From Candidatus Gorgyraea atricola (GTDB lineage Bacteria; Omnitrophota; Gorgyraeia; Gorgyraeales; Gorgyraeaceae), in contig JAVCCW010000018.1 in NCBI GenBank assembly GCA_030765235.1, positions 25,465 to 89,464 of the forward strand: DNA of 64,000 bases. Direction: 5' to 3'. Under the pieces are notes generated by a model. That model ran no database searches, was not told where the DNA came from, and was given only the letters and a program-made list of their open reading frames with translations. Below, piece by piece: positions 3,361 through 64,000 of the stretch (positions are counted from its first letter, which is position 1; each line of letters starts with the position of its first letter). The position numbers and the translations under genes are program-made.

Positions 3361-3824
3361 GCATAATAAACGATGCTATTAAAAAGGCAAGAAAAGAATC
3401 AGGCCTGAAAGGTGTGGGCGAGGTAGTCAACCTTTCAGAAATAAGCCCTTCTGCGCCAAAGACCTCTGAAGTAAAGTGGATAGCGATCGTGGTGATTTCC
3501 CTAACAATCATCGCCTCTCTCTTTGGCTCTATGTTTTTATATAATCACATAACAAAGATAGATGAACCTGTCACCTATTCTATTACAGAAAGAAGCGAAC
3601 CTATTGCCCTGTCCAGAAAGGCCAAGCCAAGCTATAGTGAATTTCAAGAGACAATAGAGCTAAACGGCATTGTCTACGAAACTCTGGACCGCTGGGCCAT
3701 CATAAACGACAAAATCGTCCGCGAAGGCGACCTCCTCCCAAATGGCAAACTAATCCTCATCCAAAAAGACTACGTAAAAATCCAAAAAAATAACGGCGAA
3801 GAACTAGTCCTGAATCTAAGATAG
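3357..3824 (+). CDS. GspB/ExeB-like membrane protein (partner of ExeA)
   Basis: ATGA overlap with exeA, a single TM helix, and C-terminal ...IELNGIVYETLDRWAIINDKIVREGDLLPNGKLILIQKDYVKIQ, which resembles the GspB C-terminal domain. Confidence 0.6.
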   Translation: MSIINDAIKKARKESGLKGVGEVVNLSEISPSAPKTSEVKWIAIVVISLTIIASLFGSMFLYNHITKIDEPVTYSITERSEPIALSRKAKPSYSEFQETIELNGIVYETLDRWAIINDKIVREGDLLPNGKLILIQKDYVKIQKNNGEELVLNLR

Positions 3825-3876
3825 TAAAAGTAGGGTGTACCCAAACAGGACGTCTACTATTTCCCTCTATTTCCCT

Positions 3877-5205
3877 TTATAAGCTCCAACCGGCTTCCGA
3901 GTTTTTCTCTGGTTTTTCTTGAAAATCTAAGTTTTCCAAATTCTTCATTTCCTGTATAACATTAAGTACTTCCTTGGCTTCCAAGGTTTCTTCAAAAATT
4001 ATAGCTTTCCGCCTTCGATTTGAAACTTTCTGCGACAGATATCCTTTGACTTTCTCTGTGACTAGGTTACTTTTTACATTTTTAAAAAGAGAGATAGCTT
4101 TTAGGGCTCTAAGATTCCCCGCCTCATGGAGTTTTTTAAGCTTTTCAACAGCCTCTAGCTGCAACTGTTCTTCATTGGAATTTTTTAATAGCTCAATTTC
4201 TTTAATTAAAATATATGCCAAGATAGATTTTGCCTTATCTCCTGTATAATATTTTTCAATATCGCGTAACGCTAACTCTGTTTTTTTTGTTCCTGTGTAT
4301 TTTTTCAAAAAGTATTTATTTATAAAATTATAAATCTTTCTAGGTTTTGTTTGTTTTAGAAAATTAGGGTCTATTTCTGATACTATTAAAGTTGCGTGTA
4401 ATAATCTATAGAGAGATTTTCGCAAGATATCTCTTATAATTACCGAATCCAAATCATACTTTATAAAAAAACTGTGAATATTCATACTATCAATCAATTC
4501 TTTAGCTCTGTAAGAGGCCTCTTTTCTTAAAGTTAGAACGTCTATTTTTTTTCTCCTTATCTGTGTACCATATATAGCCACGCCATAATCAAAACGCAAA
4601 GCAGCCAAATATTCTATTTCATGCGTCAAAGGGTCGAATCCTAAGAATTTAAACTCACAGTCTATAGGGGTATAGTTTTTTTCTGGAAAAACTAAGATTG
4701 GAGACTGAGAATTAATAAAAGCTGTCATGTGTTCTACTTTTTTTTGATAATCAACCATTTCCCGAGCATTTATCCTCAGTCCTATTTTAAAATCAACATC
4801 GCTTGGTTCAGGCGAGTAAATAGAGCTTCCAAAAATAATGATGTGTTCTAATCTATCTTTTAAATCAAAATGAGAAAGCACGTACTCAACGTATTCAATT
4901 ATTGTCCTTTCTTCTCCAGATTGCGTTTTAATAAAAGCTTTTTGTGACATCTTGATTCTTTTTACGATTTCACGTTGTAACTGTGGTTTGAGTAGAGGGA
5001 AATATGCATTCCCTTCTTCTAAATATTTTTTAATCGTATATTTCGAAGGGAAAAGTTTAGCTAATCTGCCTCCCCCTTCTTCCATGGGAACCCTAAGAGC
5101 ATTCTTTGATGCTGTATAGGAATAAGTGGTGCTAGTTAATAAGAACGAACTGCATGTTACAATAATCAGCACTCTCAAATTATACCCTTTTTTAAACCTT
5201 ACCAT
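3877..5205 (-). CDS. AT-rich gene: signal-peptide protein with a Pol-beta-type nucleotidyltransferase motif and a long helical C-terminal region
   Basis: 442 aa with a hydrophobic N-terminus (RVLIIVTCSSFLLTSTT). IIFGSSIYSPEPSDVDFKIGL matches hG[GS]-x9-13-DhD. GC is clearly lower than in neighbouring genes. Confidence 0.6.
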   Translation of the reverse strand: MVRFKKGYNLRVLIIVTCSSFLLTSTTYSYTASKNALRVPMEEGGGRLAKLFPSKYTIKKYLEEGNAYFPLLKPQLQREIVKRIKMSQKAFIKTQSGEERTIIEYVEYVLSHFDLKDRLEHIIIFGSSIYSPEPSDVDFKIGLRINAREMVDYQKKVEHMTAFINSQSPILVFPEKNYTPIDCEFKFLGFDPLTHEIEYLAALRFDYGVAIYGTQIRRKKIDVLTLRKEASYRAKELIDSMNIHSFFIKYDLDSVIIRDILRKSLYRLLHATLIVSEIDPNFLKQTKPRKIYNFINKYFLKKYTGTKKTELALRDIEKYYTGDKAKSILAYILIKEIELLKNSNEEQLQLEAVEKLKKLHEAGNLRALKAISLFKNVKSNLVTEKVKGYLSQKVSNRRRKAIIFEETLEAKEVLNVIQEMKNLENLDFQEKPEKNSEAGWSL

Positions 5206-5352
5206 AATTCACCCATAAAAATAGCCTCTGCCTGTCTTATAAGGCTATATTGCTCCTATCGTTATTGTAATGTAATTATACCATATAAATAGGGGTTTGG
5301 GAAGGGAATTTTAGGGGGCAGGTGAATTTGAAAATGTAGCCTTTTATGGATA

Positions 5353-5563
5353 AGTGTGGCGCGGGGTGTCCTGTGAGTGGGAGGATCCACACCGGGCCGT
5401 GCCCCGTACCGATAGGTATGGGGCGGAGGGGCCCGCCCCGTTCCAAATTCTAGTCGATAATCGATTCATTGTTTGTAACTAATTGCGGGCAATTCTGATT
5501 GATTATTTGATGATATTTGAGAATTTGGAACGGGGCCCGCTCACAGGACACCCCGTGCCACAC
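5353..5563. repeat. GC-rich long inverted repeat (MITE-like): ~45-bp arms (GTGTGGCGCGGGGTGTCCTGTGAG...CCCCGTTCCAAATTC), the left arm interrupted by a ~50-bp insert
   Basis: Arms are reverse-complementary over about 45 bp; the CCCCGTTCCAAA arm motif also forms hairpins at 56297 and 60195. Confidence 0.55.
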
Positions 5564-5581
5564 AATACGGGTTAAAGAGTT

Positions 5582-6304
5582 CTAATCCGTCTCTTCGATT
5601 GTGGTAAGGGCTTCTTTGGCTGAGGATTGTTCTGCGGTTTTTTTGTTGGGGCCGGAACCTATGCCGTAGCGTTTGCCTTGTATAAGGGCTTCTACAATGA
5701 AATGCTTCTTGTGGTCCGGGCCTATTTCTGAGATGATCTTATAGGAAGGTGTAGCCTTAAATCTCTTTAACGCGATCTGCTGGAGCGCGGACTTGTAATC
5801 CTTCGAACCTTTTCCCTCTCTTACAAGCTGGATCTCTGAATAAAAGACCTTTTTTATAAATTTAGAAGCTGGTTTTATGTCCCCGTCCAGGTAAATAGCG
5901 CCTATTAATGCTTCTAATGCGCACAAAATATTCGATGTGTGCTTTCTTCCGCCAGAGGCCTCTTCTCCTTTTCCCAGGAGAATAAAATCGCCTAAGTGAA
6001 GATGCTTTGCTATGCGGCCAAGCGTGGAGCCGCTTACCAGCTGAGACTTATAGCGCGTGAGAACCCCTTCATCCTGGTCAGGAAAATCCTCGTAAAGCAG
6101 CCTGCTCATGACTATGCCCAGCACAGAGTCGCCTAAAAACTCGAGTCTTTCATTATCCTCTAATTTTAATTTAGATTTTTCGTTCGCAAAAGATTTATGG
6201 GTCAGGGCCTGGTTCAAAAGCTCTTTATTTCTAAAGCGGTAACCAATGGATCGTTCCAGGTCTTTAAGTTTTTTCAAGCGGGTCTTGTCTTTTTTTAGAA
6301 TCAT
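5582..6304 (-). CDS. rnc: Ribonuclease III
   Basis: ERLEFLGDSVL signature and a C-terminal dsRBD. Confidence 0.95.
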   Translation of the reverse strand: MILKKDKTRLKKLKDLERSIGYRFRNKELLNQALTHKSFANEKSKLKLEDNERLEFLGDSVLGIVMSRLLYEDFPDQDEGVLTRYKSQLVSGSTLGRIAKHLHLGDFILLGKGEEASGGRKHTSNILCALEALIGAIYLDGDIKPASKFIKKVFYSEIQLVREGKGSKDYKSALQQIALKRFKATPSYKIISEIGPDHKKHFIVEALIQGKRYGIGSGPNKKTAEQSSAKEALTTIEETD

Positions 6305-6333
6305 ATAGATTCCCGCTTTCGCGGGAATGACAA

Positions 6334-7425
6334 TTACAGCAGGCTCTTGATGGAATTTAGTATAACTGACTTAGGTATGTTTTCCTTTACCACAGTCTTT
6401 CCTATATTTACAGGAAGTACGAATCTATTTTTTCCGTGGATGAATTTTTTATCATGTTCCTGCGCCTTAAATATAGCTTTTATATCCAGGCCCTTTAGGG
6501 TAACTGGCAAGCCTATCTTTTTTATCAGGTTCTTTATCCGCAGAAAGCTTCCCTCATCCAATAGCCCCAATTCCCTAGCTATATGCGACGCGGCAATAGT
6601 GCCAAGCGCTATTGCCTGGCCATGGCTATATGATTTACCATAATGCGCGGCTGTTTCAATAGCATGGCCTATTGTGTGGCCGAGATTGAGTATTACGCGT
6701 ATGCCTTTATTATCATGTTCGTCCTTTTCCACCACGCGAGCCTTTATTAAACTACACGTGTAGATTATGTATTCCAGTGACTTTTTGTCACGACCCAATA
6801 CCTTTTTGTAATTTTTTTCAAGAAAACTGAATAGCTGCGGTGATTTGATGATACCATATTTAACGACCTCTCCTAATCCGGATATCAGATCTTTTTTAGG
6901 TAGAGTCTTTAATAAAGCTGCGTCACTAAAAACAAGTCGCGGCTGGTAAAACGCACCTGCAAGATTCTTGCCTACGCTTAGATCTATGGCTACCTTGCCC
7001 CCTATTGCAGAATCTACTTGAGCAAGGAGCGTTGTCGGGACCTGAATGTAAGGAATGCCGCGCCTATAAATACTCGCGACAAAACCTGCCAGGTCTCCTA
7101 TCACGCCACCGCCTAAAGCAACAATAAACATCCTGCGACTGGAGCCATCGAATTTAGAAAGCCTGTTAAGGAGACTGATACAATATTTCTCTGATTTGGA
7201 TTTTTCGCTGTCTGGCACAACCGAGAATCTGACGTTAAAACCAGATAAAGAAAGAGATGCTTGTATCTTTTTACCTAAAAGCCTTTTTATAACAGGATTG
7301 GTAATTATTACAGCATCAGTGCCGATCTTTAATCTCTTCAGGTGTTTGCCAAGATCAGCGATTTCATTGCGAGAAACCTTTATGTCATAGCTTCTTTTAC
7401 CGAGATTTACGCGTATTTTTTTCAT
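6334..7425 (-). CDS. aroB: 3-dehydroquinate synthase
   Basis: GGGVIGDLAGFVA...VPTTLLAQVDSAIGGK. Confidence 0.93.
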   Translation of the reverse strand: MKKIRVNLGKRSYDIKVSRNEIADLGKHLKRLKIGTDAVIITNPVIKRLLGKKIQASLSLSGFNVRFSVVPDSEKSKSEKYCISLLNRLSKFDGSSRRMFIVALGGGVIGDLAGFVASIYRRGIPYIQVPTTLLAQVDSAIGGKVAIDLSVGKNLAGAFYQPRLVFSDAALLKTLPKKDLISGLGEVVKYGIIKSPQLFSFLEKNYKKVLGRDKKSLEYIIYTCSLIKARVVEKDEHDNKGIRVILNLGHTIGHAIETAAHYGKSYSHGQAIALGTIAASHIARELGLLDEGSFLRIKNLIKKIGLPVTLKGLDIKAIFKAQEHDKKFIHGKNRFVLPVNIGKTVVKENIPKSVILNSIKSLL

Positions 7426-13566: not shown

Positions 13567-13648
13567 AAATCCCAAATCCAAAACCGTGTTTGGGATTTGG
13601 AAATTGGGATTTATTTGGGATTTGGTAGTATTGGGATTTGGGATTTTT
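13567..13648. repeat. Hairpin repeat family A copy 1 (GGGATTT/AAATCCC degenerate heptamer arrays around a CATGTTTGGGATT-like centre)
   Basis: aaatcccaaatcc...gtgtttgggatttggaaattgggatttatttgggatttggtagtattgggatttgggattttt. Confidence 0.75.
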
Positions 13649-13660
13649 CATGTGTGTCAG

Positions 13661-15672: not shown

Positions 15673-15746
15673 TGGAGCGGGTAAGGGGAATCGAACCCCT
15701 GCTGCGAGCTTGGGAAGCTCGTGTTCTACCATTGAACTACACCCGC
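15673..15746 (-). tRNA. tRNA-Gly (anticodon CCC)
   Basis: Reverse complement GCGGGTGTAGTTCAATGGTAGAACACGAGCTTCCCAAGCTCGCAGCAGGGGTTCGATTCCCCTTACCCGCTCCA: 7-bp acceptor stem, anticodon loop TTCCCAA, GGTTCGATTCC T-arm, encoded CCA. Confidence 0.9.
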
Positions 15747-19440: not shown

Positions 19441-19450
19441 CAAACCTCCT

Positions 19451-19490
19451 AAAGTAGACAAAACAGACAGTGTCTGTTTTGTCTACTTTA
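19451..19490. repeat. Palindrome family F copy 2
   Basis: aaagtagacaaaacagacagtgtctgttttgtctacttta. Confidence 0.85.
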
Positions 19491-20519
19491 GCCAAAGAAG
19501 ATCTTGGCGATGTTGTATAGTTCCATGTCAACAGTCTTTAGCTTGGCTACAGCAGCTTCTAATGAAACGCCCTTTACCTGGTTGCCTTGTAATGCAGCCA
19601 TCTTGCCATAATCCTTTTTTAGCACCAGCTCCATTGCTTTTATGCCGAAACGTGTGCCAAGCACTCTGTCAAAGGCAGTGGGCGTACCACCCCTTTGTAA
19701 GTGGCCAAGCACTGTGACTCTTGTTTCAAAACCTGTATTTTTCTCTATTGCTTCACCTAATGCATGGCCTATGCCGCCCAGGCGTATATGGCCAAACGCA
19801 TCTAACTTTTCCTCTTGCTTGACAAGTTTACCCTGCTTAAACTTCGCGCCTTCTGCCACTACAACAATGCTGAAGCTCTTGCCCCTAGCGTGGCGCTTCT
19901 TTAAAAGAGCGCATACCTCATCCATATCTATTGGAAGCTCTGGTATCAAAATAATATCAGCGCCTCCTGCTAATCCAGACTCTACAGCAATCCAGCCTGC
20001 GTGCCTGCCCATTACCTCGACTACCATGATCCTGTTATGTGACTCGGCTGTAGTGTGCAGCCTGTCAATGGCCTCAGTGGCAATATTTATTGCAGTATCA
20101 AACCCAAACGTTACATCTGTGCCTGAAAGATCATTGTCAATGGTCTTTGGCGCGCCAACTACACTCAGCCCTTCTTTGTGTAACTTTGATGCTACGCCAA
20201 GCGTATCCTCGCCGCCAATGACTATTAGCGCCTCCAGCCCCATTTTTTTAAAATTCGCTTTTACCTTTTCTACATCCCCTTGTTTTTTATAAGGATTTGT
20301 CCTTGAGGTGCCAAGTATTGTGCCGCCTTTTGGCAATATCCCAGAAACAGACTTAAGGTCTAATTTTTCAGTATTGTTTTCTACTAATCCTTTCCATCCA
20401 TTCTTTATACCTATTACTTCATACCCTTCTTTGAGCGCAAGCCTCACAACTGCCCTGATCACTGAATTTAACCCAGGACAATCCCCTCCTCCTGTTAATA
20501 CACCAACCCTCTTTGTCAT
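19488..20519 (-). CDS. pfkA: 6-phosphofructokinase
   Basis: MTKRVGVLTGGGDCPGLN...GGEDTLG...MGRHAGW. Confidence 0.9.
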   Translation of the reverse strand: MTKRVGVLTGGGDCPGLNSVIRAVVRLALKEGYEVIGIKNGWKGLVENNTEKLDLKSVSGILPKGGTILGTSRTNPYKKQGDVEKVKANFKKMGLEALIVIGGEDTLGVASKLHKEGLSVVGAPKTIDNDLSGTDVTFGFDTAINIATEAIDRLHTTAESHNRIMVVEVMGRHAGWIAVESGLAGGADIILIPELPIDMDEVCALLKKRHARGKSFSIVVVAEGAKFKQGKLVKQEEKLDAFGHIRLGGIGHALGEAIEKNTGFETRVTVLGHLQRGGTPTAFDRVLGTRFGIKAMELVLKKDYGKMAALQGNQVKGVSLEAAVAKLKTVDMELYNIAKIFFG

Positions 20520-20540: not shown

Positions 20541-20665
20541 AAATCCCAAATCCCAATAATACCAATACTACCAAATAAATCCCAATTTCAAAATCCCAAA
20601 CATGGTTTTGGATTTGGGATTTTGGATTTATTTGGGATTTGGTAGTATTTGGATTTTGGATTTTT
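20541..20665. repeat. Hairpin repeat family A copy 2 (about 125 bp, long inverted repeat)
   Basis: aaatcccaaatcccaataataccaatactaccaaataaatccc...catggttttggatttgggattttggatttatttgggatttggtagtatttgg. Confidence 0.8.
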
Positions 20666-20693
20666 CCATTGTTTGGTTATTTCGCGTTCCCCA

Positions 20694-22674: not shown

Positions 22675-22752
22675 AAATCCCAATACTACCAATAATACCA
22701 ATACTACCAAATAAATCCAAAATCCCAAATCCCAAAACATGTTTGGGATTTT
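22675..22752. repeat. Hairpin repeat family A copy 3
   Basis: aaatcccaatactaccaataataccaatactaccaaataaatccaaaatcccaaatcccaaaacatgtttgggattttt. Confidence 0.8.
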
Positions 22753-22755
22753 TCA

Positions 22756-23208
22756 TTATGTCGGTTCCACCATGAACAGCGCTTGTCCGTATTCAACTGG
22801 TTCAGCATTTTCTACCAGCACTTCGACTACTTCACCCTTTACCTCTGACTTTATTTCATTCATCAGCTTCATCGCTTCTATAATGCATACTACCTCGCCA
22901 ACAGCCACGACCTTGCCTATTTCCACGTAGGGCTTTGCATCAGGCGAGGACGATCTGTAAAAGGTGCCTACCATGGGTGTCTTTATGGCTGTGAGTTTCC
23001 TGGCTAATTCTTCTTTTGCTGCCGCGCCTTGATCTGGCCTGATAGTCTGCACTGTCCTTGCTGCGCTCGGATCTTCAGTGATCGCCTCAAAGTTTCCGGA
23101 AGGCGATTTCCTAAGTTTTATCCTCGTGCCTTCCCGTTCGATCTCCAGCTCGGAAAGCCCATTCTCATTCATTAAGTTGATCAACTCTTTGATCTCTTTT
23201 AGGTTCAT
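22756..23208 (-). CDS. accB: Biotin carboxyl carrier protein
   Basis: EAMKLMNEI biotinyl-lysine motif. Confidence 0.9.
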   Translation of the reverse strand: MNLKEIKELINLMNENGLSELEIEREGTRIKLRKSPSGNFEAITEDPSAARTVQTIRPDQGAAAKEELARKLTAIKTPMVGTFYRSSSPDAKPYVEIGKVVAVGEVVCIIEAMKLMNEIKSEVKGEVVEVLVENAEPVEYGQALFMVEPT

Positions 23209-26232: not shown

Positions 26233-26264
26233 CTTGTAGGCCAGGTTTAAACCTGGCCTACAAG
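26233..26264. repeat. Palindrome family G copy 1 (TGTAGGCCAGGTTTAAACCTGGCCTACA)
   Basis: Perfect palindrome centred on GTTTAAAC. Confidence 0.85.
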
Positions 26265-26270
26265 AGGGGG

Positions 26271-27077
26271 TTACCACAATAGTAATCCCCCGTAGCCCAC
26301 AACAGATGTATAATCGCCAGAGATATCCCCGCTTGTCTGATACTTTACGAGTCCGGCCTTTTCAGCGCCTAGATTTTTACATACGCTTATAAGAGTGCAT
26401 GTCGGCGCAACTCCGCACATCGATATGTTAAGCTCTTTTACGACCTGAAAGAGCCTCTCCTCATCGAGCGCCAGTATGGCATTTATGGCGAGCCTGTCTT
26501 TTTCCTCCGCGCTATCTCTTGATTCATAGTGCGTAAAATCCGTACTCGCTATAAAAATAGCGGATCTCCCTATCTTTTTAAATCCTTCTGCTATTTCCTT
26601 TCCTATCTGCTGATATTGTGCGAGATCCCCCTGAGAGATAGTTATGGGCACTATTTTTATGTCCTTTTTCAGATACTGCAAAAAAGGCACCTCTACTTCT
26701 ATGGAATGCTCATTTAAATGCGAAGCGCTGTCCTCTTTTAGAAGCGTACTTCCTTTTAATATAGACTCTGCGATCTCAGTATCTATCTTTGCCTCTCCCA
26801 AGGGGGTTTCCCATGTACCCTTGGTCATTATAGCAAATGGCTTTCCTGATCCAGTGTGGTTTGTCCCTAATATTATGGCTGTCTTTTTTAGCTCTACCTT
26901 TGATATCACAGCTCCCGCTACAGAACCAGAATAGATATAACCTGCGTGAGGCAGAATGGCACCTTTTATTTCCTGTTTTTCCGCCTCAAGATCTATCATC
27001 CCGGAAAGCATCTTATTTAGAGCTACTGTTGTCTGCGGATAGAACTGACCAGCTACGATAGGTTTTCTTCGCGTCAC
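26271..27077 (-). CDS. AmmeMemoRadiSam system protein B (MEMO1-like)
   Basis: VAGQFYP...AILPHAGYIYSG. Confidence 0.85.
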   Translation of the reverse strand: MTRRKPIVAGQFYPQTTVALNKMLSGMIDLEAEKQEIKGAILPHAGYIYSGSVAGAVISKVELKKTAIILGTNHTGSGKPFAIMTKGTWETPLGEAKIDTEIAESILKGSTLLKEDSASHLNEHSIEVEVPFLQYLKKDIKIVPITISQGDLAQYQQIGKEIAEGFKKIGRSAIFIASTDFTHYESRDSAEEKDRLAINAILALDEERLFQVVKELNISMCGVAPTCTLISVCKNLGAEKAGLVKYQTSGDISGDYTSVVGYGGLLLW

Positions 27078-29980: not shown

Positions 29981-30016
29981 CTTCTGTAGGCCAGGTTTAA
30001 ACCTGGCCTACAGAAG
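29981..30016. repeat. Palindrome family G copy 2
   Basis: ttctgtaggccaggtttaaacctggcctacagaagg. Confidence 0.85.
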
Positions 30017-30026
30017 GAGGATAAGC

Positions 30027-33070: not shown

Positions 33071-33108
33071 TGACCTCGTAGGTCGGATTTAAATCCGACC
33101 TACGAGGT
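33071..33108. repeat. Palindrome (CCTCGTAGGTCGGATTTAAATCCGACCTACGAGG)
   Basis: Perfect palindrome centred on ATTTAAAT; the same theme as family G. Confidence 0.8.
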
Positions 33109-33116
33109 CTAATAAT

Positions 33117-35668: not shown

Positions 35669-35800
35669 TGTTGTGTGTTGTGAGGGTGAGTTATGGGTTG
35701 TGGGTCGAGTTGTGGGTTGTGAGTAGTGAGTTAAAACCCACAACTCATCCACACAACCCGACTCACAACTCACAACACACCCCCACCCTCACAACTCACA
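35669..35800. repeat. Hairpin repeat family B copy 1 (GGTTGTG/CACAACC heptamer-like units)
   Basis: ttgtgtgttgtgagggtgagttatgggttgtgggtcgagttgtgggttgtgag...cccacaactcatccacacaacccgactcacaactcacaacacacccccaccctcacaactcaca. Confidence 0.8.
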
Positions 35801-37764: not shown

Positions 37765-37989
37765 AAAAGCTAAAAGCAGACCTGTGCGCTCAGGTGAAAA
37801 TTTCCCCCTTGCGGGGTCGTCTTTTATTTTGCATTTTGGTGGGGCCGAAAAAACTTACCCGACACCATAGGTGTCGGGGTCGAACAGTTTTCGACCTTTT
37901 TGTCTCATAAAATGTGACGGAATAAACCACCAAAACACAAAATAAAAGACTAAATTTTCAATTCGCTCCCAGGTCTGCTTTTAGCTTTT
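37765..37989. mobile_element. MITE-like element copy 1 (225 bp) with perfect 20-bp terminal inverted repeats AAAAGCTAAAAGCAGACCTG
   Basis: aaaagctaaaagcagacctg...caggtctgcttttagctttt; the interior holds several hairpins and no ORF. Confidence 0.75.
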
Positions 37990-38072
37990 AAGATTCCCTG
38001 TTTAAAAAATCTGTGCTTGCAATCTGATTAAATCTAACCTGGTTAGAAATGTCAAGAAATCTTAAAAATTTT

Positions 38073-38435
38073 TTAATTTTTAAAAAGCAAAGAGACTAAA
38101 GATGATAATGAAAATAGTGTTATCGCCGTACTGAAAGTCAAATGCCACGATATGTTTAAATTCTTGCTATTTTGTGTCGAAGTATCGCTGATTTGTTTTT
38201 GTTCAACATGATAAGCTTGCGCTGTGCCGCTACCACTAGAATTAACACGAATATCATTATCTTTCCATATACTTTTTGGGCCTGTCATGCTTTGAGATGT
38301 TTGGATTGTAATCATCAATTTTGAGATAGAAAATCGAAGATAGAGTAGAGAGAGAACAACAAATATAGCCATAATTACTGTAATTATTTTTCGATTTTTC
38401 ACATTTTTCTCCTTTTTTATTTTCTCAGCTAACAA
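38073..38435 (-). CDS. AT-rich hypothetical small membrane protein, 120 aa
   Basis: Two hydrophobic segments; low GC; sits between the two MITE copies. Confidence 0.45.
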   Translation of the reverse strand: MLAEKIKKEKNVKNRKIITVIMAIFVVLSLLYLRFSISKLMITIQTSQSMTGPKSIWKDNDIRVNSSGSGTAQAYHVEQKQISDTSTQNSKNLNISWHLTFSTAITLFSLSSLVSLLFKN

Positions 38436-38578
38436 TTAATAGGCGAATCTACTATTCTTTGCTATTAGTAGCAGCTTAGAACGTCTTATTCTATAGCCGA
38501 GCATACTGTCTATCGCGACTTATATAGTATTATGTTACCACTTAAAGCAAGAGAAGACAATTGTTTAAATTGCACGAT

Positions 38579-38850
38579 AAAAGCTAAAAGGAAGACCTGG
38601 TAGCGAATTTGAAAATTTAGTCTTTTATGTAGCATTTTGGCGGTTTCTATGGCTCATTATATGAGCCCAAAAGGCCGAAAACTGTTCGACACCCACACCT
38701 ATGGTGTGGGTGAAGTTTTTTCGGTCCCGCCAAAATGCGGAATAAAAGACGACCTGTTTCCGAGCGGAGTCCCGCCCTTTCGTAGAAAGGGCGGGGCGAA
38801 GCGAGGAGGGAAATTTTCATCTGAGCGAACAGGTCTTCCTTTTAGCTTTT
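38579..38850. mobile_element. MITE-like element copy 2 (272 bp), inverted orientation, diverged, with a ~50-bp internal insertion
   Basis: aaaagctaaaaggaagacctg...caggtcttccttttagctttt; the interior is homologous to copy 1 (shared ccgaaaaaactt...caccataggtg...cgaacagttttcg). Flanked by cacgat/atcgtg. Confidence 0.75.
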
Positions 38851-38892
38851 ATCGTGTATGGCGCTACATTTTAGTGTAGGATTAGACAGAAA

Positions 38893-38921: not shown

Positions 38922-38953
38922 GATTCCCGCTTGCGCGGGAATGACATTTCTGG

Positions 38954-39871: not shown

Positions 39872-39920
39872 AGCCGAGGTCCAGCCTCGGCTTTTGAAAA
39901 AGCCGAGGCTGGACCTCGGC
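39872..39920. repeat. Palindrome family H copy 1 (CCGAGGTCCAGCCTCGGCTTTTGAAAAAGCCGAGGCTGGACCTCGG, nested hairpins)
   Basis: Perfect palindrome directly downstream of the lepA stop. Confidence 0.85.
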
Positions 39921-41722: not shown

Positions 41723-41766
41723 CCGAGGTCCAGCCTCGGCTTTTGAAAAAGCCGAGGCTGGACCTC
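41723..41766. repeat. Palindrome family H copy 2
   Basis: ccgaggtccagcctcggcttttgaaaaagccgaggctggacctc. Confidence 0.85.
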
Positions 41767-47391: not shown

Positions 47392-47435
47392 CCCTACATT
47401 TGTAGACCAGGTTTAAACCTGGTCTACAAATGTAG
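47392..47435. repeat. Palindrome family G copy 3 (compensatory variant TGTAGACCAGGTTTAAACCTGGTCTACA)
   Basis: cctacatttgtagaccaggtttaaacctggtctacaaatgtagg. Confidence 0.85.
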
Positions 47436-48605
47436 GCCCTTGCCTTTAATGATATCTATATCCTTGTCGCCTCTACCGGATAGGCAGATGGCTATGATTT
47501 TATTTTTGTTCAGCTTCGGCGCTAGTTTTTTTACTGCATAGTATATGGCATGGCTTGGCTCAAGGGCTGGGATAATGCCTTCTGTCTCAGATAACATTCT
47601 AAAGCCTTCTAAACCTTCTTTATCATTTACAGCCACATACTGGGCGCGGCCAATGTCTTTGTAATACGAATGCTCCGGGCCTACGCCTGGGTAGTCCAGG
47701 CCTGCGGAGATCGAATGCGCGACTTTTACCTGGCCGTCTTTATCCTGTAACAAATAGCTCTTACTTCCATGCAAAACCCCGGGTTTACCTTTACAGAGTG
47801 CTGCACCGTGTTTGCCGCTTGCTAAACCTAAGCCGCCTGCTTCTACGCCGATAAATTTCACCCTTGTCTTAAAAAACGTGTGGAAAAATCCTATGGAATT
47901 GCTTCCTCCGCCAACGCATGCCACCATGTAATCTGGAAGTCGGCCTTCATATTTTAAGATCTGTTTCTTTGTCTCTTTGCCAATAACTGCCTGAAAATCA
48001 CGAACCATTGCAGGATATGGGTGTGGGCCTACTACAGAGCCTATTATATAATGAGTTGTACGAACATTTGTAACCCAGTCTCTTATTGCTTCATTGGTCG
48101 CGTCTTTAAGAGTCTTGCTTCCTGAATAAACAGGTATTACCTTTGTGCCAAGAAGCTTCATTTTTAATACATTCAACGCTTGACGCTCTATGTCCTCTAT
48201 GCCCATATATACTTCGCAAGGAAGCCCAAACATAGCTGCAGCAGTAGCTGTGGCAACACCATGCTGGCCAGCGCCTGTCTCAGCTATAATGCGCGACTTG
48301 CCCATCTTTACAGCCAAAAGCACCTGGCCAAGCGTATTATTTATCTTATGCGCGCCTGTATGCAGCAGATCCTCGCGTTTAAGATAGATTCTTGTGCCTG
48401 TTTTTCTGGACAGGTTCTTGGCAAAATAAAGCGGCGTGGGCCGACCTGCATAGACCTCCAGCAATTCACCTAATTCACGCTTAAACTTAGCATCTTTAAG
48501 AGCCTTTTTATATTCCCTCTCCAGCTCCTCAAGCGCTACCATAAGCGTCTCAGGCACAAACTTCCCACCAAATCCCCTGAATTTACCATTCTTATCAGGT
48601 AGCAT
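47424..48605 (-). CDS. trpB: Tryptophan synthase beta chain
   Basis: [12 protein letters not shown]-lysine motif. Confidence 0.95.
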
Positions 48606-48699
48606 ACATTTCTCCCTTATATAGCTTATAAATTATATATTATAAAAGGTGAGGTGTCAAGTCCTGTCATTCCCGCGAAAGCGGGAATCCACATAAAAA

Positions 48700-53583: not shown

Positions 53584-53645
53584 GACCTGGCAAGGCTGGA
53601 CCTCGGCTTTTTTAAAAGCCGAGGTCCAGCCTTGCCAGGTCTGCT
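53584..53645. repeat. Palindrome family H copy 3 (variant centre TTTTTTAAAA, longer arms)
   Basis: ctggcaaggctggacctcggcttttttaaaagccgaggtccagccttgccag. Confidence 0.85.
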
Positions 53646-54823: not shown

Positions 54824-54939
54824 AATCCCAAATTCAAATACTACCAAATCCCAAATAAATCCAAAATCCCAAAGCATGTTTGGGATTTAGAAATTGGGAT
54901 TTATTTGGTAGTATTGGTATTATTGGGATTTGGGATTTT
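54824..54939. repeat. Hairpin repeat family A copy 4
   Basis: aaatcccaaattcaaatactaccaaatcccaaataaatccaaaatcccaaagcatgtttgggatttagaaattgggatttatttggtagtattggtattattgggatttgggatttt. Confidence 0.8.
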
Positions 54940-56275: not shown

Positions 56276-56296
56276 TAATCTCTCCTTCCGCGTGCC

Positions 56297-56383
56297 CCGT
56301 TCCAAAATCTCTGATTTTGGAACGGGGCGTAGTTCCGCGTCTAAAGTAGACAAAACAGTCAGTGACTGTTTTGTCTACTTTAG
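56297..56383. repeat. Two adjacent hairpins between acsB and acsC: a CCCCGTTCCAAA hairpin and palindrome family F copy 3
   Basis: gtgccccgttccaaaatctctgattttggaacggggc followed by ctaaagtagacaaaacagtcagtgactgttttgtctactttag. Confidence 0.8.
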
Positions 56384-56406
56384 CTTCCGCGTAAGTTCCG
56401 CGATTC

Positions 56407-59886: not shown

Positions 59887-60395
59887 AATTTTTTCTTAAA
59901 CTCCTTTTCTGTGCCTAAGAATAACGCGGCTGTCTGGCATGCCTCTACGCATGCGGGTATATCCCTATCAGGACAAAGGTCGCACTTTACAATGATCTTA
60001 TCTTGTTTCTGCCTTGAAAGTGCGCCAAATGGACAGCTCATTATGCACATCCAGCAGCCCACGCATTTTTCTTCATCATGTTTTGTCTGACCGGTCTTCT
60101 TGTCTTTATACATCGCACTAGACATGCACGCTGCTACGCACGGCGCGTCCTCGCAGTGATGACAGCCTGTTGAAATAACTATACCCCATTCCAAATTGCC
60201 AGCTTCTGTAATTTTAGGAAATTTGGAACGGGGCACGTCTCCCTCGATTGATTCAGCCTTGCGCCTTTTTATTGGCAGCGGCCTTTCTTTTATTGCCTCA
60301 TCAAGCTTTTTGGATTTAGAATGCTCCACTGCGCATGCAATCTCGCATGCCCTGCAGCCTATGCATTTTTTAATATCACAATATATTTTTTTCAT
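59874..60395 (-). CDS. cooF: 4Fe-4S ferredoxin, CooF-like
   Basis: Several CxxCxxCxxxC(P) motifs. Confidence 0.85.
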   Translation of the reverse strand: MKKIYCDIKKCIGCRACEIACAVEHSKSKKLDEAIKERPLPIKRRKAESIEGDVPRSKFPKITEAGNLEWGIVISTGCHHCEDAPCVAACMSSAMYKDKKTGQTKHDEEKCVGCWMCIMSCPFGALSRQKQDKIIVKCDLCPDRDIPACVEACQTAALFLGTEKEFKKKLCNT

Positions 60396-63204: not shown

Positions 63205-63320
63205 GGTTGTGAGGGTGAGTTATGTGTTATGAGTCGGGTTGTGGGGGTGGGTTGTGAGGCGCTAACTCACTACCCACAACTCACAACTCGACCCACAACC
63301 CATAACCCACCCACACCCTC
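63205..63320. repeat. Hairpin repeat family B copy 2
   Basis: ggttgtgagggtgagttatgtgttatgagtcgggttgtgggggtgggttgtgagg...cccacaactcacaactcgacccacaacccataacccacccacaccctc. Confidence 0.8.
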
Positions 63321-63321
63321 A

Positions 63322-64000
63322 TTACTTCTGCAACTTAGTCGTTTCCAGCAGATTCTTCATAAGTATGGCTACGGTTAAAGGGCCTACGCCGCCTGGAACA
63401 GGCGTGATATACGCGGCTCTTTCCTGCGCCTTATCAAATTCCACGTCTCCAACCAACTTGCCTTCTACTCGATTTATGCCTACATCAATAACAATCGCGC
63501 CTTCTTTTATCCACTCGCCCTTTATGAGCCCTGCTTTGCCCACTGCAACTATCAGAATCTCTGCCTTTTTTACAAATTCGGGTAAGTTTCCTCTTTCGCC
63601 TGTAGCAATATGACACACAGTAGTAGTCGCAAATTTATTTAGCAGCATGAGCGCCAGCGGTTTTCCGACTATCTCGCTATGCCCTACTACAACAACCTCT
63701 TTTCCGTAAAGCTTCAATCCTTCGATCGAATTTAATATCTCCATACACGCTGCAGCTGTGCACGGCAAGACCTTTGCGTTGCCAAACACGATCTCGCCCA
63801 TGTTCTGCGGGTGCACTGCCTCTACATCTTTTAAAGGCGCTATGTGCTTGGATATTGACTTGGCATCTATGTGAGAAGGAAGCGGCATCTGAATAATTAT
63901 GCCATTAACCGCAGCATCTTTATTTAATTTCTCAATGGTCTTTATAAGGTCTGCCTGCGAGACATCTGAGGCGAGTTTTTCAATATGATAATCTATGCCG
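63322..64000 (-). CDS. folD: Bifunctional methylene-THF dehydrogenase/methenyl-THF cyclohydrolase; 5' end beyond window end
   Basis: Reading frame stays open upstream of the annotated Met (...NKDAAVNGIIIQMPLPSHID...), so the true N-terminus lies beyond position 64000. Confidence 0.88.
   Translation of the reverse strand, partial: GIDYHIEKLASDVSQADLIKTIEKLNKDAAVNGIIIQMPLPSHIDAKSISKHIAPLKDVEAVHPQNMGEIVFGNAKVLPCTAAACMEILNSIEGLKLYGKEVVVVGHSEIVGKPLALMLLNKFATTTVCHIATGERGNLPEFVKKAEILIVAVGKAGLIKGEWIKEGAIVIDVGINRVEGKLVGDVEFDKAQERAAYITPVPGGVGPLTVAILMKNLLETTKLQK

Follow-up and report, generated by a model that had tools for sequence, protein, structure and literature searches.

An AT-rich insertion next to rnc in an Omnitrophota genome carries a gene for a putatively exported, nucleotidyltransferase-like protein behind a shared promoter and leader module

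The Omnitrophota are abundant, uncultured bacteria, suspected to live on other cells and thought to be predatory or host-dependent nanobacteria. To our knowledge, almost nothing is known about the products they secrete. In Candidatus Gorgyraea atricola, an AT-rich gene encoding a 442-aa protein (ORF442) and a GC-rich inverted repeat are located between rnc and a gspB-like gene, within the 64-kb stretch of DNA analysed here (the window). This raises the question how both elements came to be at this junction and what the protein, which combines a signal-peptide-like N-terminus with a nucleotidyltransferase (NTase)-like motif, might do.

Related Omnitrophota have rnc and the gspB-like gene arranged tail to tail with only 15-130 bp in between, as seen in about 28 loci. 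Since these syntenic relatives contain neither ORF442 nor the repeat at this site, the two represent a lineage-specific insertion of about 1.75 kb into the convergent junction. It comprises the following main parts:

3825..5581, no strand: extent of the insertion, from comparison of the conserved tail-to-tail pair rnc/gspB-like gene in about 28 loci
3877..5205, minus strand: coding sequence for the 442-aa protein with its leader, NTase-like alpha/beta domain and helical domain, from the ATG-started reading frame, its relatives and its GC content
5321..5353, minus strand: terminal remnant (about 30 nt) of a MITE-family member, from alignment and a direct repeat
5354..5563, no strand: GC-rich composite inverted repeat of 210 nt, from arm pairing and folding energy

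ORF442 exhibits the lowest GC and GC3 values among the 53 window genes. Compared to the other 52 window ORFs of at least 150 aa, its GC content is 0.325 instead of 0.435 (z = -5.2) and its GC3 0.284 instead of 0.45 (z = -4.2). The sequence-only reading of this DNA had noted a GC content markedly below that of neighbouring genes and proposed horizontal acquisition; the low GC content holds, and horizontal or lineage-specific acquisition is supported, as ORF442 is a strong compositional outlier and is missing from the syntenic relatives, both being features of a horizontally acquired islet. The relatives of ORF442 and other genes carrying the same leader are AT-rich compared to their neighbours, too (three other genomic contexts). 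Identical copies (100%) of ORF442 were found on three metagenome contigs (L001-L003). A spurious reading frame was ruled out by the relatives with their conserved motifs.

ORF442 is the only gene in the island. No ORF with an integrase or transposase domain was detected within 3825-5581, no direct repeats flank the insertion, and the sole tRNA of the window is located at 15673-15746. A terminator scan resulted in a single match (3972-3986, plus strand), which is no better than chance. In the closest relative, locus L004 (rnc 96% identical), a different MITE and the same promoter were found, after which the contig ends.

The inverted repeat consists of outer arms at 5354-5381 and 5536-5563 (28 nt, 93% complementary) and inner arms at 5435-5451 and 5520-5536 (17 nt, 100% complementary), with an AT-rich centre at 5452-5519. 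Arms of about 45 bp had been described before. This holds for the right arm with its 44 contiguous nucleotides but not for the left one, which is split by a self-folding GC-rich hairpin insert of 53 nt (5382-5434). The fold reaches -142.8 kcal/mol on the plus strand (z = -12.4) and -112.2 kcal/mol on the minus strand (z = -10.7), and none of 200 shuffled sequences was as stable. Within the window and the fetched loci, only one copy of the exact 210-nt element was found, and apart from the same-strain L001 no other fetched locus contains its arms; no target-site duplication is recognisable. Its inner-arm motif GCCCCGTTCCAAA recurs, however, as small hairpins at 56294-56328 and 60218-60234, and full copies of the MITE family from which the adjoining remnant derives lie at 37768-37990 and 38573-38856 of the window and directly after rnc in L004. 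The repeat appears to be a nested MITE/REP-like element, in line with the MITE-like nature suggested earlier. Contrary to what had been assumed, it delimits the island on the rnc side only; nothing comparable is present at 3825-3876. An integron attC site was rejected for this element, which is too long and on the wrong side of a cassette having its own promoter.

The extreme stability of the fold might alternatively indicate a functional structured RNA, either an antisense ncRNA on the plus strand or a double-stranded stem in the rnc 3' UTR that is cut by RNase III for autoregulation and for insulation from the downstream promoter. RNase III requires more than 20 bp of perfect duplex, which the element, beginning 18 nt past the rnc stop codon, offers. 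Furthermore, the plus strand folds 30 kcal/mol better than the minus strand, and both mismatches of the outer stem are G-U pairs on the plus strand, although two out of two such pairs are not significant. Such an RNA is rather unlikely, however, given that the element is missing after rnc in the about 28 relatives, that the closest one has a different MITE, and that unrelated families of palindromic repeats abound in the genome. Neither the repeat nor the 5' UTR of ORF442 matched an Rfam family, with only chance-level matches in 5150-5650, and in the whole window nothing but one tRNA reached the gathering score.

Besides the MITE/REP-like element, the insertion contains what appears to be a self-contained expression unit, the upstream part of which is shared with other genes:

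5191..5320, minus strand: whole DNA module, comprising an upstream box CCCTTCCCAAA, promoter, 5' UTR and the first five codons (nhmmer E = 7.7e-32)
5275..5303, minus strand: sigma-70-type promoter with -35 TTCCCA (5303-5298), a 17-nt spacer and extended -10 TGgTATAAT (hexamer 5280-5275)
5206..5268, minus strand: predicted 5' UTR with a ATAGGAGCAATAT box, 8-bp hairpin, U-run and Shine-Dalgarno (SD) sequence, from alignment
5086..5205, minus strand: leader, codons 1-40 (MVRFKKGYNLR, hydrophobic core, ...ALRVP), from an alignment of eight proteins, two fragments and hydropathy

With the nhmmer profile, this module of about 130 nt was detected only once in the window; elsewhere it is located ahead of eight distinct genes (E = 1e-18 to 1e-33), three of them in tandem in locus L161. 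The promoter is the best match in 3700-5700 (10/12 with TG) and is conserved ahead of the eight genes as well as in L004. In the 5' UTR, the hairpin (5248-5241 with 5228-5221) is followed by the U-run (5220-5217) and the SD sequence GGGTGA (5214-5209). It is 95% paired in eight sequences with loops of 4 to 16 nt, and these sequences exhibit one-sided changes only and no double compensatory ones; the single-sequence fold of the 5' UTR gives z = -1.4. The hairpin may have a regulatory role. A small upstream ORF (MGELW) is not conserved.

Besides the ORF442 family, the module precedes unrelated AT-rich genes, whose products include a TPR protein, one resembling methyltransferases and others of unknown type. 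A scan of metagenomes with the 5' UTR pattern resulted in 120 loci, nearly all of them chance or unrelated matches; L107 and L161 were the only new true copies. Scans of viral contigs gave 76 promoter matches at chance level, whereas the specific 3' portion of the 5' UTR did not occur there, so that no phage link is indicated. The alignments reveal a promoter/5' UTR/leader module that is common to the ORF442 family and to unrelated, putatively exported proteins of the Omnitrophota. Because such different passengers share one module, it is suggested that these genes are co-regulated and co-exported and that they were moved or rebuilt by recombination at the module.

The extent of the leader depends on the translation start. 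Public gene callers place it at M41, resulting in a protein of 402 aa (database entry P0001). The homologues P0002, P0003 and P0007 can be aligned with ORF442 from residue 1, and an SD sequence (GGGTGR-ATTATG) is conserved ahead of the ATG at 5205, while nothing comparable precedes M41. For these reasons translation most likely starts at the ATG at 5205. If M41 were the true start, the leader would be untranslated and the product a cytoplasmic ANT/MNT-like nucleotidyltransferase, e.g. a modifier of small molecules or antibiotics, which would agree with the database entry and with the nearest structural matches being cytoplasmic resistance enzymes and antitoxins. Together with the alignments and the SD sequence, the conservation of the leader at the protein level, its ten examples differing by synonymous and conservative changes, makes this very unlikely.

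The leader consensus of about 40 aa, found on ten different proteins (eight aligned, two fragments), reads M+xFKKGYNL+, followed by a hydrophobic core and an LRxP box about 10 residues past the core, of which L37, R38 and P40 are invariant among the aligned leaders. The n-region of the ORF442 protein is positively charged (R3, K5, K6, R11; +4) and its core (V12-L23(T27), 12-16 residues) is the only hydrophobic or transmembrane segment according to hydropathy. The signal-peptide-like N-terminus recognised in the sequence-only reading is thereby corroborated, being conserved from residue 1 in homologues and common to other proteins. Leader conservation and hydropathy together indicate that the ORF442 product is probably routed across the inner membrane via the Sec pathway. 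A Tat signal was rejected, as the leader lacks a twin-arginine motif (S/T-R-R-x-F-L-K), and so was a lipoprotein signal, since the window protein has neither a lipobox ([LVI][ASTVI][GAS]C) nor a Cys after the h-region. LYSC is present in a few other leaders. A class III prepilin signal was discarded, too: position +5 is V, I or L and not E in all ten leaders, and no N_methyl/TIGR02532 match was obtained in Pfam and NCBIfam.

No clear A-x-A signal peptidase site follows the core, and AlphaFold (AF2) draws residues 8-36 as a single long helix. Both observations would fit an uncleaved type II membrane anchor that holds an enzyme facing the periplasm. LicD and fukutin are NTase-fold phosphotransferases using an activated donor such as CDP-alcohol, and an enzyme of this kind modifying an envelope polymer would be freed from the problem of nucleotide supply. 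The gene of relative P0007 lies beside a glycosyltransferase gene and a pseudopilin gene, but neighbourhoods differ between the relatives. Furthermore, a strongly hydrophobic core of 12-16 residues is short for a stable transmembrane helix, and neither LicD nor any other Pfam family matched. A membrane-anchored enzyme is rather improbable on this evidence; export through the membrane remains the reading we prefer.

What would be exported is a member of a very rare family, as judged from the databases searched. Among 1.84 billion representative proteins only seven relatives were found (25-36% identity, E = 1e-54 to 5e-25). Single-sequence and profile searches of Pfam, NCBIfam, PADLOC, PHROG and PDB revealed nothing significant for the 442-aa protein. 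In word-indexed searches of 5.8 billion proteins, which say little on family size, ORF442 retrieved the identical protein only, the family alignment P0007 only and the leader alignment two short fragments only. Two domains follow the leader:

4546..4923, minus strand: NTase-like alpha/beta domain, residues about 95-220, from motif conservation, AF2, sub-threshold PF18765 matches and Foldseek
3922..4539, minus strand: all-helical domain, residues 223-428

The first domain contains IIFGSSIYSPEPSDVDFKI at residues 123-141, including the hG[GS] motif as F125-G126-S127 (G126-S127 codons at 4825-4830) and the metal-binding motif [DE]h[DE]h as D136-V-D138-F (D136-x-D138 codons at 4792-4800). Both are separated by 8 residues, one below the usual 9-13. 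For the third carboxylate, D182 or E184 of beta3 could serve, as could D191 (GEG in five relatives); none of the three is invariant. The G-S...D-x-[DE] signature is kept in six out of seven family members, the window protein among them, and PF18765 (Polbeta) matches at the motif position in three relatives (E = 5e-5, 0.0095 and 0.13), all below threshold with 23.7, 16.5 and 12.9 bits compared to a cut-off of 26.9. The window protein itself matches neither PF18765 nor PF01909 nor any other Pfam family, even at E <= 10.

The AF2 model (pLDDT 71, pTM 0.64; a single-sequence prediction with pLDDT 41 was unusable) exhibits the canonical NTase order alpha1-beta1-(GS)-alpha2-beta2(DxD)-alpha3-beta3-alpha4-beta4. 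Its top matches in a Foldseek search of the PDB were AAD(9), ANT(3'')(9), ANT(4'), AadA, MntA, CCA-adding enzymes and GrpB, with a marginal best E-value of 2.9e-3, and matches in BFVD include NTases, too. Alignment by hhalign with kanamycin NTase placed G-S...D-x-E on the motif only (E = 0.038), and AadA was misaligned (E = 0.36); neither is significant. The Pol-beta signature proposed earlier is thus upheld by motif conservation, the sub-threshold family matches and the structural neighbours. The model and the motif make an NTase fold probable at these marginal statistics. About 290 aa of helical, Lys-rich sequence had been described behind the signature; the helical part is shorter (about 220 aa, residues 223-428), as residues 142-222 belong to the alpha/beta domain, and Lys accounts for 11.5% of the protein. 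The final 100 residues or so of the helical domain form HEAT/ARM-like repeats.

P0007 has lost G-S and D-x-D but kept the remaining family signature, and therefore catalysis is not universal in the family. It might be that ORF442, too, is an exported non-catalytic scaffold or adaptor, with the NTase-like domain degenerated to a binding module and the HEAT/ARM-like repeats making protein-protein contacts. The strongest structural matches overall, which are helical-repeat proteins, point in this direction, as do the pure TPR protein behind another copy of the leader and the missing conservation of the third carboxylate. We consider a scaffold unlikely, since retention of both motifs by six of seven members at only 25-36% identity argues for selection on the catalytic motif.

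A further possibility, raised in part by the sequence-only reading, was a cGAS/DncV-like or SMODS cyclic-nucleotide synthase, or an MNT-type toxin-antitoxin component, of a defence island. The G-S...D-x-D signature in an AT-rich, horizontally acquired context would suit such a function, and one relative exhibits weak PADLOC matches (PbeC 4.6e-4, PDC-S09 8e-4). The window protein, however, has no PADLOC or CD-NTase match, and no effector gene, HEPN partner or other second gene is present in the island. The Rx4-6H motif is absent, the only R...H element being YRLLH (Rx2H), which is not invariant. Foldseek retrieves ANT, MntA and CCA enzymes and not CD-NTases, and a secretion leader is ill-suited to intracellular signalling. 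This possibility is largely refuted and extremely improbable.

According to the account we favour, the insertion at 3825-5581 would combine the nested MITE/REP-like palindrome with one self-contained expression unit, consisting of an extended -10 promoter, a 5' UTR of about 63 nt with a hairpin and U-run just before the SD sequence, and the AT-rich gene. The product, translated from the ATG at 5205, would be sent by its leader through the inner membrane by Sec. The mature protein would carry a Pol-beta-superfamily NTase-like alpha/beta domain (G126-S127, D136-x-D138) followed by the helical domain, and would attach a nucleotidyl or NDP-linked group to some target beyond the producer's own cytoplasm, whether in the envelope or within a host or prey cell. 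ORF442 would thereby be one of a pool of AT-rich accessory genes of the Omnitrophota that place unrelated passenger domains behind the same module. The insertion, its deviating composition, the family with its motif and the shared module are shown, whereas export, catalytic activity and target are proposed, and the effector or toxin function put forward in the sequence-only reading is conjectural. It counts against the account that an NTP-dependent enzyme outside the cytoplasm would find no evident source of nucleotides except within another cell, and we give the whole of it about an even chance. In a bolder version, AT-rich effector genes of the Omnitrophota would form a mobile pool, in which the module serves as co-regulation signal, as secretion 'zip code' of a lineage-specific pathway (possibly the T2SS/T4P-like machinery of the phylum) and as recombination handle for plugging in new passenger domains, with LRxP as sorting or processing box and ORF442 as a DrrA-like NTase effector acting on or in another cell. 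We regard this version as improbable.

The 130-nt profile and the 40-aa leader provide a sequence handle to list exported, probably co-regulated accessory proteins throughout the phylum. Its NTase-like member is a candidate secreted nucleotidylating enzyme which, with about 400 aa, can be expressed and assayed. If the module were a dedicated sorting signal with LRxP as processing site, a new class of secretion signals would be defined for the PVC group. Otherwise, the locus remains a clear-cut case of a single-gene insertion with nested MITEs at a conserved convergent junction.

Among known enzymes, the aminoglycoside nucleotidyltransferases ANT(9)/AAD(9), ANT(3'')(9)/AadA and ANT(4') give the best structural matches to ORF442 (Foldseek matches 6sxj, 7uy4, 6un8, 1kny and 4cs6) and share its predicted layout of two domains, in which a Pol-beta-type NTase domain bearing hG[GS] and D-x-[DE] comes first and a helical domain second. 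In contrast to them, ORF442 has an export leader, an N-terminal helical extension of about 45 residues and a much longer helical-repeat tail, and it exhibits no significant sequence similarity to ANTs and no sequence match in the PDB. The spacing from G-S to D is 8 residues instead of the 10 in AadA and kanamycin NTase. With MNT/MntA it shares the only Pfam family touched at all, PF18765, sub-threshold in three relatives, and MntA chains (7ae9_E, 6m6u_A, 7bxo) are among the Foldseek matches; unlike MNT it is three times larger, has a leader and lacks a HEPN partner and Rx4-6H; the relatives stay below the gathering score, and the window protein has no match. The Legionella effector DrrA/SidM has a GS-ATase/kanamycin-NTase-like fold with a G-x11-[DE]-x-[DE] motif and, exported by a bacterium living on other cells, nucleotidylates a host protein with ATP of the target cell. 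It travels by type IV secretion, lacks a leader of the Sec type and is absent from the Foldseek list; the resemblance would be a functional analogy only.

In Omnitrophota, class III (prepilin-type) signal peptides of T2SS/T4P substrates are reported to be abundant in the vicinity of giant genes (bioRxiv 10.1101/2023.11.21.568195). The leader resembles them in that its N-terminus is short and basic and ends in K-G, after which [YL]-[NS]-L and hydrophobic residues follow (compare [KR]G-F-[TS]-L-[IL]-E). Moreover, ORF442 adjoins exeA/gspB-like genes and P0007 a pseudopilin gene. Different from class III substrates, all ten leaders lack the glutamate at +5 and the passengers are large enzymes and not pilins. 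The inverted repeat shares terminal inverted repeats, intergenic location, hairpin potential and GC-rich nested hairpins with MITEs and REP-like palindromes, and differs from MITEs in being single-copy in the searched data and in lacking a recognisable target-site duplication.

The Vlp/Vsp lipoprotein genes of Mycoplasma have a near-identical promoter, 5' UTR and signal-peptide segment, while their mature parts differ. The same organisation is known from the 'upstream homology box' (UHB) of the Erp/OspE-F-related surface proteins of Borrelia, which are accessory and recombining (PMC10016077, PMC12018966). Like both, the module described here joins a shared promoter, 5' UTR and leader to differing mature proteins. 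Unlike the Erp and Vlp proteins, the window protein is no lipoprotein, and no phage or plasmid carrier was found in the viral-contig scans. In contrast to Erp/UHB and Vlp/Vsp, the Omnitrophota module is conserved across different organisms and environments, and its hairpin/U-run and the invariant LRxP box are specific to it.

The open reading frame ORF442 and the quoted nucleotidyltransferase (NTase)-like segment of its product, IIFGSSIYSPEPSDVDFKI (residues 123-141 of 442), were found on the minus strand with an ATG start; the observation of the sequence-only reading is confirmed, and its interpretation is borne out in part. The low GC content claimed relative to the neighbours applies, too. 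GC amounts to 0.325 and third-position GC (GC3) to 0.284, compared to means of 0.435 and 0.45 for the other 52 ORFs. Among the 53 window ORFs of 150 aa or more, to which the ranking was restricted (a sliding GC profile was also computed), ORF442 is a strong compositional outlier with the lowest GC (z = -5.2) and the lowest GC3 (z = -4.2).

The minus strand holds 51 of these 53 ORFs and cumulative GC skew declines steadily across the first 12 kb of the window, both of which fit one replichore whose genes strongly favour one strand. A terminator-like hairpin with a T-run is located at 3972-3986 on the plus strand, within the 3' end of ORF442 and 150 nt past the stop codon of the gspB-like gene. 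It could terminate a convergent exeA-gspB transcript; such terminator-like matches are not above chance frequency here.

Scanning the RNase III protein against one genome per species yielded about 30 Candidatus Omnitrophota MAGs/SAGs (69-96% identity), to which the window's neighbouring proteins were compared by tblastn.

3877-5205, minus strand: ORF442, ATG start, 442 codons
5582-6304, minus strand: rnc, with the Pfam domains RNase III and dsrm

The gene order aroB - rnc -> <- gspB-like (155 aa) - exeA-like - pilZ - pilZ - 130-aa protein is constant across the relatives, where rnc and the gspB-like gene stand tail to tail with a gap of only about 15-130 bp. Since their stop codons are separated by 1757 bp (3825-5581) in the window, ORF442 and the adjoining repeat have been inserted into a junction of convergent genes that is otherwise conserved. 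The gene is thus not syntenically conserved between rnc and exeA, and together with its composition this supports horizontal or lineage-specific acquisition. An identical gene in the same setting was detected on three metagenome contigs (L001-L003). In the closest other species (L004, rnc 96% identical), rnc is followed by a different element of about 250 nt, then by the same promoter sequence, and then by the contig end. Neither an integrase or transposase gene nor a tRNA gene is present in the island, a single-gene insertion with its own promoter.

Part of the gap between ORF442 and the rnc stop codon is filled by a composite GC-rich inverted repeat.

5354-5381 and 5536-5563: outer arms, 28 nt, 93% complementary
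5435-5451 and 5520-5536: inner arms, 17 nt, 100% complementary

As the arms 5520-5536 and 5536-5563 adjoin, the right arm comprises 44 contiguous nt; the left arm is split by a 53-nt GC-rich insert with its own hairpin. A 236-nt RNA folds with -142.8 kcal/mol on the plus strand (z = -12.4) and -112.2 on the minus strand (z = -10.7), and no shuffled sequence equalled either energy. The repeat is real and far beyond chance. It was said to bound the gene, but lies on one side of it only. Possibly, albeit unsupported, it acts as a functional RNA, either as a plus-strand transcript or as a substrate of RNase III within the 3' UTR of rnc. Its proposed MITE-like nature is supported by its surroundings: the roughly 30 nt between repeat and promoter (5321-5353) match the end of a MITE-like family of about 220-280 nt, with full copies at 37768-37990, at 38573-38856 and directly after rnc in L004, which differ through inserted GC-rich hairpin modules. 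Furthermore, the inner-arm motif GCCCCGTTCCAAA forms small hairpins at 56294-56328 and 60218-60234. As a whole, the 210-nt repeat was seen in only one other place among the loci searched, the same-strain contig L001. Most simply, it is read as a nested MITE/REP-type element, inserted next to the gene or into an older MITE at that site. Such a repeat is ordinary for this genome. The window abounds in unrelated intergenic palindrome families.

The MITE-like copies at 37768-37990 and 38573-38856 are mutually inverted, have their own terminal inverted repeats (AAAAGCTAAAAGCAGACCTG...) and bracket an AT-rich segment with an ORF at 38073-38435 (minus strand), whose 120-aa product has a single hydrophobic segment. 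This has the appearance of another small composite insertion. Further intergenic elements comprise a 44-nt perfect palindrome family CTAAAGTAGACAAAACAGnCAGTGnCTGTTTTGTCTACTTTAG, at least three more short GC-rich, REP- or terminator-like families (e.g. TGTAGGCCAGGTTTAAACCTGGCCTACA, CCGAGGTCCAGCCTCGGCTTTTGAAAAAGCCGAGGCTGGACCTC), and repeats of 70-90 nt built from GGGATTT/AAATCCC units (AAATCCCAAATCC...GGGATTTGG) at four sites in both orientations. In addition, two mutually inverted regions of about 120 nt consist of imperfect repeats.

2464-2507, 19449-19492 and 56341-56384; also L084 at about 2060-2105: palindrome CTAAAGTAGACAAAACAGnCAGTGnCTGTTTTGTCTACTTTAG
26235-26273, 29985-30023, 33077-33115 and 47401-47439: further palindromes
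39874-39917, 41723-41766 and 53590-53633: further palindromes
6308-6335, 38922-38949 and 48665-48694: further palindromes
13567-13649, 20553-20666, 22689-22760 and 54826-54939: GGGATTT/AAATCCC elements
35677-35799 and 63206-63329: imperfect GTTGTGAG/ACTCACAAC repeats

In locus L084 the CTAAAGTAGACAAAACAGnCAGTGnCTGTTTTGTCTACTTTAG palindrome immediately precedes the promoter of the gene for P0007, a homologue of the window protein; its presence there suggests that the L084 organism is a close relative.

The interest of the locus is lifted by a feature absent from the original finding, a promoter/5'UTR/leader module. The DNA upstream of the relatives of ORF442 is nearly identical, though the encoded proteins have only about a third of their residues in common.

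Upstream box CCCTTCCCAAA, part of the shared module
5303-5298 (-35, TTCCCA) and 5280-5275 (TATAAT), minus strand: extended -10 promoter TATGGTATAATTA, the top promoter match in the region
Box ATAGGAGCAATAT, conserved in the module
5248-5241 pairing with 5228-5221, minus strand: 8-bp hairpin with U-run
SD GGGTGR, then ATTATG, conserved in the module

A metagenome scan with an 18-nt UTR piece gave mostly chance matches and two new true copies (L107, L161), and nhmmer with a 130-nt module profile detected eight distinct genes (E = 1e-18 to 1e-33).

Window 5191-5320, minus strand: single match in the window
L161 4763-4881, 6928-7047 and 9172-9296: three genes in tandem, a copy before each
L107 267-390: one copy
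L084 2087-2216: one copy
L086 212-338: one copy
L087 9888-10015: one copy

Against about 28 rnc loci the profile gave no match save the truncated L004 promoter, and scans of viral contigs turned up no copy of the module. The protein parts behind the leader (passengers) are NTase-like, TPR, methyltransferase-like or of unknown type and unrelated to one another; the module is thus common at DNA level to unrelated genes. L107, from the same sample as L002, encodes a 216-aa protein of unknown type. Of the L161 genes, one encodes a 565-aa protein in which a methyltransferase domain scores below threshold, another a TPR protein of 680 aa, and the third is truncated by the contig end. The leader-bearing genes are each AT-rich compared to their neighbours (GC3 0.23-0.31 versus about 0.4-0.55 in L161 and L084), with a weaker contrast in L087. 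The 5' hairpin is 95% paired over eight sequences, in which its loop ranges from 4 to 16 nt; as changes were one-sided (wobble) only, covariation gives no proof of it, and Rfam gave no match. Hairpin and U-run may form an attenuator or an mRNA-stabilising stem.

In L161 an imperfect GC-rich palindrome of about 240 nt (6660-6900), unrelated in sequence, lies between two leader-bearing genes, placed relative to the module as the inverted repeat is in the window.

The window protein had no match in Pfam, NCBIfam, PADLOC, PHROGs or PDB sequences. Phmmer, run exhaustively against 1.84 billion representative proteins, returned only eight hits: the identical protein, called from M41 (402 aa), six relatives (25-36% identity in the alignment, E = 1e-54 to 5e-25), and P0008 (211 aa), which shares the first 43 residues only. 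The family is new and very rare. Alignments of P0002, P0003 and P0007 start at residue 1; in P0004, P0005 and P0006 a core of about 330 residues is set within larger proteins, with HATPase_c in P0004 and a HAD hydrolase in P0005. The relatives show no conserved operon: the P0007 gene is flanked by a glycosyltransferase and a PilZ gene, with a pseudopilin gene nearby, and the P0003 gene by genes for an AAA_14/DUF4143 ATPase and for a GH2 enzyme.

The signal-peptide-like N-terminus proposed earlier is indeed present and common to relatives and unrelated leader proteins. It consists of a basic n-region (MVRFKKGYNLR) and a hydrophobic core of 12-16 residues, with an ALRVP box about 10 residues on. 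The consensus M[RK][RK][IF][GK]KG[YL][NS]L[KR] - hydrophobic core - LR[VLK]P, in which L37, R38 and P40 are invariant, also applies to the L107 protein, the L161 genes, P0008, P0009 and P0010. The leader was rejected as a prepilin signal, as it lacks E at +5 and gave no N_methyl match, as a Tat signal and, for the window protein, as a lipoprotein signal. Alternatively, the protein might be cytoplasmic, with its start at M41, or a membrane-anchored periplasmic enzyme. According to the export reading, the leader would direct the protein into Sec-dependent export and be processed at the LRxP box or ahead of it. P0004, P0005 and P0006 share a C-terminal module of about 240 residues (about 520-763, 830-1063 and 440-674, respectively) without a Pfam match, starting LLRVP[IVL]E and ending ...[IV][TIV]AA. 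As the LRVP box also follows the leader in short proteins, Omnitrophota proteins may carry it as a marker of module boundaries or of processing sites.

Of the Pol-beta NTase signature claimed for the protein, the motif stood, while proof of the fold did not follow from marginal E-values. [FT]-G-S and D-x-[DE] (G126, S127, D136 and D138 in the window protein) are kept in six of seven aligned members; P0007 has lost both. On cores of about 130 residues, PF18765 (Polbeta NTase) matched P0004 (E = 5e-5, 23.7 bits), P0005 (0.0095) and P0006 (0.13) at the same position, all below the cut-off of 26.9 bits, and not the window protein. Hhalign with kanamycin NTase aligned the right motif at E = 0.038 only, and failed with AadA. 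The AlphaFold model from seven aligned sequences (pLDDT 71, pTM 0.64; block means 77-93 over residues 60-170) has the element order of the canonical minimal NTase topology (H102-112, E119-125, G-S, H127-130, E136-144 with D-x-D, H153-167, E181-190, H192-204, E209-212), with residues 223-428 helical. Foldseek top matches in the PDB were almost all NTase-fold, led by the spectinomycin adenylyltransferase AAD(9) (E = 2.9e-3, probability 1.0), followed by ANT(3'')(9), ANT(4'), AadA, MntA antitoxins, CCA-adding enzymes and GrpB; no match reached E < 1e-3 and rmsd was large. The ANT alignments extend over about 300 columns and cover both domains, and several annotated nucleotidyltransferases were among the matches in a viral structure library. 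The protein therefore probably has an ANT-like two-domain fold, and the family fits best into the Pol-beta NTase superfamily, as a variant; no curated model proves its membership. Catalytic competence is plausible; the third catalytic carboxylate is ambiguous, and a non-catalytic scaffold is the rival here. A defence NTase is another; given the lacking PADLOC match and the single-gene island, neither the cyclic-nucleotide synthase suggested earlier nor a toxin-antitoxin role finds support.

The mature protein would then be an ANT-like nucleotidyltransferase whose helical domain binds the acceptor, and its site of action would be outside the producer's cytoplasm. Because the periplasm lacks NTPs, the most coherent scenarios would be that it acts on or within another cell, or that it acts on the envelope with an activated NDP/CDP donor. 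No description of a leader of this type was found in two recent Omnitrophota genome papers, which report T2SS-like loci, pilZ genes and class III signal peptides as abundant in the phylum. Action on another cell fits the predatory or host-dependent lifestyle proposed for this phylum, as well as the SAM- and NTP-type enzymes among the passengers.
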